The notes beneath the pieces are model-generated. The model was not told where the DNA came from and searched no databases. It saw nothing but the letters and a program-made list of their open reading frames with translations. Made by a program: the position numbers and the translations under genes. A stretch of DNA of 39,568 nucleotides from an uncultured Candidatus Saccharibacteria bacterium (GTDB taxonomy: Bacteria > Patescibacteriota > WWE3 > 2-01-FULL-39-13 > JAACPI01): NCBI GenBank assembly GCA_964435455.1, contig CAYSYH010000004.1, forward strand, positions 1 through 39,568, given 5' to 3'. This document shows positions 18,363-27,925 of this stretch, piece by piece. Each line of letters begins with the position of its first letter. Positions within the stretch are counted from its first letter, which is position 1.

Positions 18363-18437
18363 GGCCCTATCGTCTAGTGGTTAGGACGCCAGGTTCTCAT
18401 CCTGGTAACCCGGGTTCGAATCCCGGTAGGGTCACCA
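18363..18437 (+). tRNA. tRNA-Glu (anticodon CTC)
   Basis: Acceptor GGCCCTA/TAGGGTC, D-arm GTC-TAGTGGTTAG-GAC, anticodon arm CCAGG-TTCTCAT-CCTGG, T-arm CCGGG-TTCGAAT-CCCGG, encoded CCA. Confidence 0.97.
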
Positions 18438-25745: not shown

Positions 25746-26300
25746 ATGCCATTACCTTCTAAAAAACAAGCCTTAAGTCTTCTAAAAGAACATGTTAAAG
25801 ATTCTTATCAGCAGTTACACAGTCTTATGGTTGCCACCGCTTTAGAACAAATAGCTAAAAAAAGAAATGAAGATGCTATTTTATGGTATGTTACAGGGCT
25901 TTTGCATGATTTAGATTATTATGAATATCCTAAAGAGCACCCTAAAAAATCTTTAGAATGGTTTGTAAAATGGGGGTACCCTCAAGATTTAATTAGGGCT
26001 ATTGAGGCACATGCTTATTCTAGAATAAACGCACCCAAGCCTGATACCCTGTTGGCTAAATATTTATATGCAACTGACGAATTAAGCGGTTTGATGTATG
26101 CTTATAGTTTGATGAGACCTACAGGGTTTAAGGGTATGACCCCAACAAGTGTAGTAAAAAAGCTTAAAGATAAAAGATTTGCAGCTAAAATAGACCGTAA
26201 TGAAGTAAATGAAGCTTTGGATTTAATAGACGAAGAAAGGAATGATTTTATTAAAATACTAATAGATGTTTTTTCTAACATGCCCGAGTTGGAAAAATAA
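25746..26300 (+). CDS. HD domain (HDIG-like) phosphohydrolase
   Basis: HS..V, GLLHDLDY, H...AH, DELSG, KKLKDK.FA. Confidence 0.88.
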   Translation: MPLPSKKQALSLLKEHVKDSYQQLHSLMVATALEQIAKKRNEDAILWYVTGLLHDLDYYEYPKEHPKKSLEWFVKWGYPQDLIRAIEAHAYSRINAPKPDTLLAKYLYATDELSGLMYAYSLMRPTGFKGMTPTSVVKKLKDKRFAAKIDRNEVNEALDLIDEERNDFIKILIDVFSNMPELEK

Positions 26301-26337
26301 ATTTTTTAAATATTTCTGCATAATTGCTATACGCTTA

Positions 26338-26366
26338 TTTACACTTGCGTTTTTTTTTTGTAAAAT
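26338..26366 (+). promoter_or_regulatory. Sigma70 promoter of the serS leader
   Basis: TTTACA-17 nt-TAAAAT, ending 15 nt before the T-box Stem I. Confidence 0.6.
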
Positions 26367-26381
26367 AAAGCTGATCTTAAA

Positions 26382-26531
26382 AGCGTTGAAGAGGGGTAGC
26401 GCCCTTGGAGCTGTTAGGGAAAGGTTCTTTTTAGAATTTTAACCTAATCGTTTTGCAAACGTAAAATGCTTACACAAGAGGCCTTGACAAGGCAAGGGGA
26501 GTGGTACCGCGGCTCTTTTAGTCGTCTCCCT
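26382..26531 (+). promoter_or_regulatory. T-box riboswitch with ultrashort Stem I and Ser (AGC) specifier
   Basis: T-box helix GGGGAG-TGGTACC-GCGGC...GTCGT-CTCCCT; K-turn Stem I with loop GTAGCG; Stem II, IIA/B and III all identifiable; upstream of serS. Confidence 0.9.
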
Positions 26532-26560
26532 AATTATATTACTCAAATTTAAATTAGTAT

Positions 26561-27925
26561 ATGCTAGATATAAATTATATAAGAAGAAACCCTAAACAGG
26601 TTTTAGATGCAATAAAAAACAGAGGTGTACAGGATAAAGTAAACTTTAAAGATTTTTTAACTTTAGATTCGAAATGGTTAGATTTAATAAAGAAAGTAAA
26701 TAACCTTCGTACTAAAAGGAATAATCTTACAAAGAAAATTTCAAAAAATCCAACAAGTTCCAAAGATTTATTAAAAGAAGCTTCTATTTTAAAAAAAGAA
26801 CTTCAAAAATACGAAAAAGAACTAAAAGAAGTAGAAAAAGAAAGAAATAATCTTTTATATTGGATACCTAATATACCTTTGAATGATGTTCCATTAGGAG
26901 GATCTGATAAAGATAATATAGAGTTTAAAGCTTGGATTCCTAAAAAAGGTTATCTTACTAAAGAACAATTAAGTAACTATAACGGTAGTAGTGCTTTTAT
27001 GCCTAAGAAGGCTAGTCACTCTAAAGAATCTTTTAAACCCCTTCCTCATTGGGAACTGGGTAGAAACTTAGATATTATTGATATAGAGGCTGGTGCCAAA
27101 GTTTCTGGTAATAGGTTTTATTACTTAAAAAATGAAGGAGTTTTACTTATATATGGAATTTTTGATTTACTTTTTAAACACTTGGTCACAAAAGAAAATT
27201 TTATACCTATGATTGTTCCTTTGCTAGTCCGTGAAAAGGCTTTATTTGGTACCAGTCATTTTCCTGAGGAGGTAGATCAAGTTTATAAAATAGATTCTTA
27301 TAATGTAGAAGATAAAAATAATCTATATCTTGTAGGCTCCTCAGAACCTTCTTTATTTGCTTATCATATGGATAAAATTTATAAAAAACAAGATTTACCT
27401 ATAAAAATGGTAGCTATTACACCTTGTTTTAGGTCCGAGGCAGGGTCTTGGGGTAAAGATGTACGTGGTATAAAGCGTACACATCAGTTTGATAAGTTAG
27501 AAATGGATGTAATATTAGAAGGTTCTTTAAATGAAGCTCGTAAAGTCCAAGAATATTTATTATCTATAAATGAGTGGCTTTTGCAACTTTTGGAGATACC
27601 TTATCATATTATAAATATGTGTACAGCTGATTTGGGGTACTTTGCAGCTGCAAAAAAATATGATGTAGAAGTTTGGTTACCTTCTTCGCAAGAATATATG
27701 GAAGTTTGTTCTGATAGTATTACAACCGACTATCAATCTAGACGATTAAACATAAGATATAAAGACTCCCAAGATTTAAAATATGCATTTACTGTAAATG
27801 ATACTGGAGCTACTCACAGATTGTTAATTGCTGTTTTAGATCATTATCAGCAAAAAGATGGTTCTTTGTTAGTCCCCAAAGCTTTAAGGCCATATGTAGG
27901 TAAAGATATTATAGTTCCTAAATAA
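26561..27925 (+). CDS. serS: Serine--tRNA ligase
   Basis: MLDI..IR.N, IPNIP..DVP.G, HWELG, CFRSEAG, R.HQFDKLE, KKYDVEVW, YQSRRLNIRY. Confidence 0.96.
   Translation: MLDINYIRRNPKQVLDAIKNRGVQDKVNFKDFLTLDSKWLDLIKKVNNLRTKRNNLTKKISKNPTSSKDLLKEASILKKELQKYEKELKEVEKERNNLLYWIPNIPLNDVPLGGSDKDNIEFKAWIPKKGYLTKEQLSNYNGSSAFMPKKASHSKESFKPLPHWELGRNLDIIDIEAGAKVSGNRFYYLKNEGVLLIYGIFDLLFKHLVTKENFIPMIVPLLVREKALFGTSHFPEEVDQVYKIDSYNVEDKNNLYLVGSSEPSLFAYHMDKIYKKQDLPIKMVAITPCFRSEAGSWGKDVRGIKRTHQFDKLEMDVILEGSLNEARKVQEYLLSINEWLLQLLEIPYHIINMCTADLGYFAAAKKYDVEVWLPSSQEYMEVCSDSITTDYQSRRLNIRYKDSQDLKYAFTVNDTGATHRLLIAVLDHYQQKDGSLLVPKALRPYVGKDIIVPK

Follow-up and report, generated by a model that had tools for sequence, protein, structure and literature searches.

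The window analysed here is the whole 39,568-nucleotide (nt) stretch of contig CAYSYH010000004.1 from assembly GCA_964435455.1, an uncultured Candidatus Saccharibacteria bacterium, and its + strand carries, at positions 26561-27925, the gene serS for a seryl-tRNA synthetase (SerRS) of 454 amino acids (Pfam Seryl_tRNA_N and tRNA-synt_2b; NCBIfam TIGR00414, 394 bits, cut-off 301.65). Upstream of serS on the same strand lies a 156-nt stretch (26377-26532), composed of a decoding module and a discriminator, that is very probably the 5′ leader of the serS messenger RNA (mRNA) and a T-box riboswitch with an ultrashort Stem I, which would bind a transfer RNA (tRNA), sense its charging and control serS in response. 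T-boxes are a model for RNA-RNA recognition by riboswitches. We show the architecture of this leader, its conservation and covariation among relatives, the tracking of its loop codon with the downstream synthetase and the matching tRNA in the same genome. The leader is a G+C island (45.5%, vs. 28.8% for the genome), and it is separated from the start codon by an A+U-rich spacer (26533-26560, + strand, 10.7% G+C) without a Shine-Dalgarno (SD) site or terminator. The genome of the window is denoted G000; other G and L numbers denote related genomes and loci, respectively.

Architecture of the serS leader

The Rfam T-box model RF00230 matches positions 26377-26532 along its full length (model positions 1-219) with 62 bits and E = 2.9e-13 in a search of a 401-nt stretch. 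Across the whole 744,564-base genome, the same match has E = 1.3e-13 and is the best of three T-box matches with E < 1e-8, a fourth listed match (E = 0.66) being noise. Only Stem I is deleted in the alignment, where 71 Stem I model positions are reduced to 3 nt; the long Stem I with its distal interdigitated T-loop platform is missing, the model positions for the distal part being deleted. A covariance model that we built from orthologous serS leaders (R1, described below) scores the same stretch at 149.9 bits.

Stem I spans 31 nt (26382-26412, + strand, as are all elements that follow) and consists of a kink-turn (K-turn), a 5-bp helix and a 6-nt loop, as read from the sequence and from covariation. 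The K-turn combines an AGC/GCU stem (26382-84 and 26410-12), a GUU bulge (26385-87) and tandem G.A/A.G pairs between GA at 26388-89 and GA at 26408-09. On it stands the helix GAGGG/CCCUU (26391-95 and 26402-06), capped by the loop GUAGCG (26396-26401), which holds the serine codon AGC (26398-26400), preceded by U and followed by G, as the specifier. Stem II (26414-26447), whose helix covaries and whose 5′ side carries the purine run GGGAAAGG, has an outer helix UUAGG/CCUAA (26414-18 and 26443-47) and an inner helix (26422-28 and 26433-39). The next unit (26449-26469) comprises the Stem IIA hairpin CGUUU/AAACG (26449-53 and 26457-61), the F-box-like CGUAA (26460-64) and the linker UGC (26467-69), which pairs with the loop GCA to form the IIB pseudoknot. 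The conserved AAGAG (RAG) and Stem III, GCCUU-GAC-AAGGC (26481-85 and 26489-93), occupy 26476-26493 in the RF00230 alignment. They are followed by the T-box (discriminator) helix at 26496-26531, identified by the same alignment and by covariation, with strands 26496-26501/26526-31 and 26509-13/26521-25; its 7-nt bulge UGGUACC (26502-08) holds the UGGN word, and AGUGGUACCGCG lies at 26500-26511.

A preliminary description of this locus had proposed the truncated 31-nt Stem I and a pseudoknot-like IIA/B unit, and had suggested a covariance search with RF00230. All of its element coordinates were borne out when we re-read 26100-26900, the search returned the match given above, and the IIA/B unit is recovered together with its CGUAA.

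A promoter-like site (TTTACA, 17 nt, TAAAAT; 26338-26366, + strand) ends 10 nt before the leader and agrees with the consensus at 10 of 12 positions, which is weak evidence in surrounding DNA of 24% G+C; by eye, a −10-like hexamer is visible at most 20 nt upstream in 8/8 serS leaders. The upstream genes encode, according to Pfam, a class II synthetase of the Lys/Asp/Asn type and an HD-domain protein.

Conservation, covariation and the specifier codon

RF00230 returned matches at E <= 0.001 in 34 of 61 related small genomes (0.4-1.1 Mb), only 2 of them above the Rfam cut-off, and many of the matches span just 108-200 nt. Crossing the positions of T-box matches with those of serS placed a T-box directly upstream of serS in G000, G001, G006, G008, G009, G012 and G014, that is, in 7 of the 14 evaluable genomes of the order (G003 was left out, its contig ending inside serS). 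The model R1 was built from these seven leaders. With it, we found an eighth serS leader in G059, a member of another family, and, among 80 public serS loci, a ninth (L163) in a record titled Candidatus Gribaldobacteria.

Mean column identity among the seven leaders is only 55%. Invariant across them are the loop word UAGC, the G.A pairs of the K-turn (columns G12, A13, G32 and A33), the A and G of the AAG before Stem III, and UGG-ACCGCG. We proposed 34 pairs, and standard pairing holds in 92.7% of their cells, vs. 39-47% when the partners are slid by 1-3 columns. Both sides change in 20 of the 34, and in 500 shuffles neither the fraction of paired cells nor the number of pairs with such double changes nor the covariation score ever came up to the observed value; these figures were obtained with a structure derived from the same sequences and from seven relatives, which are few. 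The Stem I helix is paired in 100% of cells, with three of its five pairs changing on both sides. In the five leaders having Stem II, its outer helix is 96% and its inner helix 93% paired, with compensatory changes in both. Stem IIA is 100% paired, and IIB, although paired in only 72% of cells, has 5/5 pairs changed on both sides and gives the clearest compensation (GCA/UGC in G000, UAUGC/GCAUA in G008, GAUC/GAUC in G012 and GGUAAC/GUUAUC in G006). The outer T-box helix is 92.9% paired with three pairs changed on both sides, and the inner helix is 97% paired. The Stem III hairpin is found in 7/7 leaders, compared as a hairpin and not column by column. The serS leaders of G001 and G009 have neither Stem II nor IIA/B, yet they carry UAGC and the T-box.

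The codon AGC is fixed in the loops of all seven leaders, and the base after it is G, U or A. The eighth leader has the loop CUUCCA, which reads UCC-A, and the loop of the ninth, GAUUUCAU, contains UCA, with UUC-A as an alternative reading; a serine codon is present in the loop of 9/9 serS leaders. Loops before other synthetase genes, whose names were confirmed by NCBIfam, contain GUC-A (valS), AUC-A (ileS), ACC-A (thrS), GGC-A or GGA-A (glyS), GCU-A or GCC-A (alaS), UGG-G (trpS, by eye) and GAC-A or AAC-A (nondiscriminating aspS). We applied a gene-blind parser with the rule that the 3′ end of the loop holds the cognate codon followed by a purine. This rule held in 24 of 30 automatically parsed short Stem I loops from the related genomes, whereas 10,000 permutations of the gene labels gave 5.5 on average and 13 at most; the count drops to 18/30 if aspS is accepted with Asp codons only. 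Three of the six misses are mis-parses (tyrS, one thrS and the ileS of G000), and in the other three (two serS and one glyS) a U comes after the correct codon. The permutation test took 30 of 75 listed leaders: the parser needs a GA...GA K-turn frame and thus mis-parsed or missed leaders with other bases there, and the valS leaders of G000 and G001, the aspS leaders of G003 and G005 and the trpS leaders were read by eye, outside the test. A regular expression for the T-box core missed many leaders, and the coordinates of the RF00230 matches were used instead.

The window genome encodes one tRNA-Ser(GCU), on contig C55, with a length of 89 nt, a long variable arm and a G73-CCA end; its anticodon fits the AGC of the loop. 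It also encodes the tRNA-Ser isoacceptors CGA, UGA and GGA. The tRNA-Ser(GCU) of G006, G008 and G012 likewise ends in G73-CCA. Since tRNA-Ser(GCU) has this end, the bulge word UGGC, present in five leaders, can pair with it by Watson-Crick pairs throughout, and UGGU, present in G000 and G006, includes a wobble. These observations agree with the preliminary description, which had named AGC as a specifier matching the downstream gene and tRNA-Ser(GCU), with its long variable arm, as the ligand: the word UAGC is invariant in 7/7 leaders, the loops track the synthetase, the specifier switches among relatives only within serine codons, and the alignment that it had called for shows covarying helices.

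From these elements we propose that the anticodon of tRNA-Ser(GCU) would pair with AGC in the 6-nt apical loop of the K-turn mini Stem I. As in actinobacterial ileS leaders, this anticodon contact would be backed by Stem II and the IIA/B pseudoknot in place of the elbow platform. The free 3′ end of uncharged tRNA, G73-C-C-A, would then pair with the bulge UGGU, a contact that charged tRNA could not make. The leader would in this way report serine charging, and falling charging would presumably lead to more SerRS.

The SerRS protein of G000 aligns over its full length, with 47-52% identity, to proteins of other families in the class. With members of its own family and order (G001, G008 and others), the match covers only residues ~155-454, at 41-46% identity; the serS leader is nonetheless common to G000 and these order mates. 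The coding region may have been replaced behind a retained leader, or the N-terminal arm may be fast evolving.

The output step and competing explanations

Several observations weigh against a working T-box at this locus. The RF00230 score is under the gathering cut-off (62 vs. 93 bits) because the 71 Stem I positions are absent, and the leader is therefore missed by standard Rfam annotation: an Rfam scan of the window at the gathering cut-off did not report it, and a tRNA-Glu(CUC) at 18363-18437 was the sole match. The fold of 26370-26570 is not unusually stable relative to shuffles (z = −1.32), and stability was therefore left out as evidence. In two of the seven leaders the base after AGC is U and not a purine. 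In G000, UGGU faces G73 only through a U.G wobble. On one side of the Stem II S-turn, UUAA stands where AGUA is usual and aligns to RF00230 with low posterior probability, and AGUA is not recognisable. Searches with R1, filters off, found no T-box before serS in G002, G004, G005, G007, G010, G011 and G013, and the element is therefore dispensable. The output side is likewise bare: a terminator-like hairpin overlapping the T-box 3′ strand is found in 0/7 AGC-type serS leaders, and the T-box helix of the G000 leader is already the minimum-energy fold, with only −8.5 kcal/mol left when its 5′ strand is blocked. A sequestrator was rejected as a general explanation, the duplex between the T-box 3′ flank and the start being no better than in 500 dinucleotide shuffles in five of the seven leaders.

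The machinery of the usual outputs was looked for at several levels. No SD site was found between 26532 and 26561. In G000, GGAG, GAGG or AGGA occurs at −20 to −4 in 52 of 619 crudely called gene starts (8%), which is background, and TAAA and other A+U words are enriched upstream of the starts instead; a classical SD sequestrator is therefore not expected. A motif search did not find the 3′ end of 16S ribosomal RNA in the G000 assembly. A G+C stem followed by a U-run within 110 nt was absent from 7/7 AGC-type serS leaders, in a scan that allowed no bulges and required the U-run, and is thus conservative and misses weak aspS and glyS cases. Folding gave no helix competing with the T-box helix in the G000 serS leader. 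Because the leader has no terminator, SD site or competitor helix, post-transcriptional control is favoured. We tentatively suggest, at somewhat less than even confidence, that control acts on access to the A+U-rich start region or on mRNA stability, and in our own ranking of outputs this comes first, with termination by Rho or by other means second.

In that second case, the aptamer would be the same and the output transcriptional: without uncharged tRNA, Rho or an unrecognised terminator would end the transcript, and a T-box helix stabilised by tRNA would prevent termination. The neighbourhood speaks for it, since every other output seen in the group is termination. A terminator hairpin overlapping the T-box 3′ strand and followed by a U-run is present in most leaders of the class, including those with ultrashort Stem I before ileS, valS and thrS, several aspS leaders and the G059 serS leader, and in G000 the 3′ domains of the valS and ileS leaders form terminators of −28 to −39 kcal/mol at the expense of the T-box helix. 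Furthermore, rho is encoded in G000 (563.8 bits, cut-off 509.45), and the T-box 3′ strand is C-rich and G-poor. The serS leaders themselves point the other way: the stem and U-run are missing from all seven of the AGC type, the spacer between T-box and start is only 23-29 nt in G009 and G000 and leaves little room for Rho loading, and the T-box helix has no competitor. We consider a transcriptional output unlikely, though it is the strongest competitor of post-transcriptional control.

An improbable alternative is that the leader is a decaying or non-switching remnant, a former T-box 5′ untranslated region that is constitutively ON or merely tolerated. A T-box helix that is the default fold without a competitor, the lack of a terminator or sequestrator and the seven related genomes without the element would all suit a remnant. 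However, at 55% identity over seven genomes, the specifier, K-turn, bulge, CGUAA and RAG are invariant or nearly so and the helices compensate; G001 and G009 lost Stem II and IIA/B and kept UAGC and the T-box; and in a relic, the 4-nt loop word and the 7-nt bulge would not have stayed constant. The remnant is given little weight because the words that would contact the ligand are fixed across genera.

Finally, it is hardly credible that a different tRNA or a shifted frame reads the loop (GCN for Ala at +1, or GUA for Val two bases upstream) and that its match to serS is a coincidence. In favour of such a reading, the +1 triplets of the seven leaders (GCG, GCU and GCA) are all Ala codons, and the NN-codon-purine frame gives UUC-A (Phe) and not UCA in L163. 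Against it, AGC stays fixed and the base behind it changes (G, U or A), as expected of a codon followed by a position under little constraint; GUA varies, being UUA in G001 and CUA in G009; the leader precedes serS in 9/9 cases; the UCC-A of G059 would become CCA (Pro) at +1; and the same frame rule fits 24/30 leaders across eight amino-acid classes.

Some further pairings around the start codon were tried. The pairing UUUAGUCGU/AUGCUAGA, which appears when the T-box 5′ strand is blocked, was rejected; it is part of a total fold of −8.5 kcal/mol and rests on the conserved CGU against AUG. Also rejected was an alternative hairpin, AAGGGGAGU/GGCUCUUUU, that would bury the bulge in G000 and is not conserved in relatives. 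In G008 and G014, both of one genus, the complementarity between T-box flank and start has z scores of −1.4 and −1.6 and includes a 10-bp match, CAUAUAAGUU/AACUUAUAUG, that takes in the AUG. In the same two genomes, the word (U)GAAUUCCAC(A) occurs 10-60 nt before the starts of serS, aspS and ileS (L013, L089 and L110 of G008; L025 of G014), and in places GAAUUCCAC forms part of a hairpin GGUGGAAUU...AAUUCCAC.

Known T-boxes, sister leaders and the phylum

An ileS T-box with an ultrashort Stem I was reportedly described in Actinobacteria (Mycobacterium tuberculosis and Nocardia farcinica ileS) by Sherwood, Grundy and Henkin in 2015. The Corynebacterium genome behind locus L194 offers a direct comparison, its T-box (L200) being located before ileS. 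This leader scores 41.2 bits against RF00230, with 76 Stem I positions reduced to 6 nt, and its Stem I, CCGG-CUAUCA-CCGG, stands on a K-turn, with Stem II, a IIA/B pseudoknot, Stem III and UGGUACCGCG downstream. The two leaders are alike in having Stem I cut out of the RF00230 alignment (76 to 6 nt there, 71 to 3 nt here), in the K-turn frame ..UGA / GGAGC.. with a helix of 4-5 bp and a 6-nt loop of NN-codon-purine layout (CUAUCA vs. GUAGCG), in the purine run of Stem II, in a IIA/B pseudoknot followed by CGU(C/A)A, RAG and Stem III, and in the UGGUACCGCG bulge. The likeness to actinobacterial ileS leaders drawn in the preliminary description, down to the loop layout, thus has a concrete counterpart. 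The differences are that the Corynebacterium leader belongs to Actinobacteria and reads Ile (AUC), whereas the serS leader is Patescibacteria-like and reads Ser (AGC), with a tRNA that has a long variable arm; that the Stem II loop is GGAAGAA...AGUAGAACC there and GGGAAA(A)...(A)UUAACC here, its 3′ side being AGUAGAA and UUAA, respectively; and that GAAGGAG precedes the start there, whereas no SD sequestrator is found here.

Relative to canonical class I T-boxes of Firmicutes (Bacillus subtilis tyrS, glyQS and serS), the serS leader shares the T-box bulge, Stem III, an F-box-like element, the basal K-turn of Stem I, a specifier that fits the regulated synthetase and a preference for codons ending in C. 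Unlike them, it has no long Stem I, no specifier side bulge, no AG bulge and no elbow-binding T-loop platform, it has no terminator, and it scores under the RF00230 cut-off.

According to two sources (PMC7583486, PMC7778990), long Stem I with an elbow platform goes with transcriptional control, and short Stem I with an apical specifier has been described for translational ileS leaders of Actinobacteria. The review (Zhang 2020, PMC7583486) states that transcriptional T-boxes are generally said to need a long Stem I and that a truncated Stem I barely binds tRNA without Stem II. The TBDB class II model (translational_ILE), according to its description (PMC7778990), was built from ileS leaders and was run on Actinobacteria and on class I matches with truncated Stem I.

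A literature search found no paper linking T-box riboswitches with Patescibacteria, the candidate phyla radiation (CPR), Saccharibacteria or Parcubacteria; subscription journals and the TBDB supplements lay outside this search, and TBDB may list truncated-Stem-I leaders of other specificities. The logic of recognition is known. We would class as new the kind of ligand, the lineage, the altered Stem II loop and the lack of a recognisable expression platform. The short form would here read another class of tRNA, with a long variable arm, in another phylum and in a genome without SD use, and sister leaders combine short Stem I with classic terminators. If this is true, these leaders would provide natural scaffolds of minimal size (110-160 nt) for a number of tRNA identities, would test the need for an elbow contact in co-transcriptional sensing, and would point to an output mechanism not yet described.

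The sister leaders (valS and ileS of G000; related aspS, thrS, glyS and alaS) have in common with the serS leader an apical-loop specifier followed by A or G and the discriminator. They differ from it in the form of Stem II (GGAAGAA...GUAGAACC), and at the end of most of them stands a strong intrinsic terminator that overlaps the 3′ strand of the T-box and that the AGC-type serS leaders do not have. The G000 valS leader (contig C2:43551-43785; L002:1501-1735) has the hairpin CUUGG-AGUUAAUGUCA-CCAAG with GUC-A, and the G000 ileS leader (contig C27; L003:1455-1698, minus strand) has the hairpin GUGG-CUAUCAA-CCAC with AUC-A. In both, intrinsic terminators of 14-18 bp with a U-run displace the T-box helix in the minimum-energy fold. 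On the strength of these folds, both would switch transcription without a Stem I platform that binds the tRNA elbow. In the ileS leaders of G000, G008 and G012, Stem I contains another small hairpin, which AGCGU/ACGCU closes.

In other leaders both Stem II and IIA/B are missing, and a short linker joins the ultrashort Stem I to Stem III and the T-box helix. Such minimal T-boxes precede glyS in G005 (L028, 108 nt) and G060 (L105, 110 nt) and serS in G009 (L030:1501-1613, 113 nt) and G001 (L064:334-459, 126 nt); another, of 110 nt, is L023 of G050.

In an even sample of the phylum, a T-box match at E <= 1e-6 was found in 45 of 151 genomes, and a match above the Rfam cut-off in only 5 of 151; standard annotation therefore misses most T-box regulation in the phylum. 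The nearest relatives of the G000 SerRS are in records titled Candidatus Dojkabacteria, Levyibacteriota, WWE3 and Patescibacteria group, which, together with a genome size of 0.74 Mb, fits the earlier impression of a CPR genome. The serS leader may belong to a large and practically unannotated radiation of T-boxes with ultrashort Stem I in Patescibacteria, whose apical loops specify at least eight amino-acid classes (Ser, Val, Ile, Thr, Gly, Ala, Trp, and Asp or Asn). Many of these would have strong terminators and act as co-transcriptional switches without an elbow platform, some would be stripped to ~110 nt without Stem II and pseudoknot, and the AGC-type serS leaders, with neither terminator nor sequestrator and without SD use, would represent a third, undescribed coupling. 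We regard this wider picture, taken as a whole, as possible but doubtful.

Among the nondiscriminating aspS leaders, so typed by a match of the gene product to the NCBIfam aspartate--tRNA(Asn) ligase, an Asn codon (CAAACA loop, AAC-A) is found in L081, L018, L089, L103, L094 and L112, and an Asp codon (CGACA or CCGACA loop, GAC-A) in L080, L091 and L111. Depending on the lineage, the same aspartyl-tRNA synthetase would then be tuned to either tRNA-Asn or tRNA-Asp.

T-box leaders also precede conserved proteins of 180-470 amino acids that belong to no Pfam or NCBIfam family (L083:680-1552, L084, L092, L076, L008, L009, L007, L073, L075, L017 and L019), according to our own, crude calls of open reading frames. 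For such T-box-controlled genes, the specifier could indicate the amino acid that is handled. A cluster of these proteins, of ~290 amino acids (L083:680-1552, L084, L092 and L076), lies behind loops AGAAUGGG that read UGG-G (Trp).

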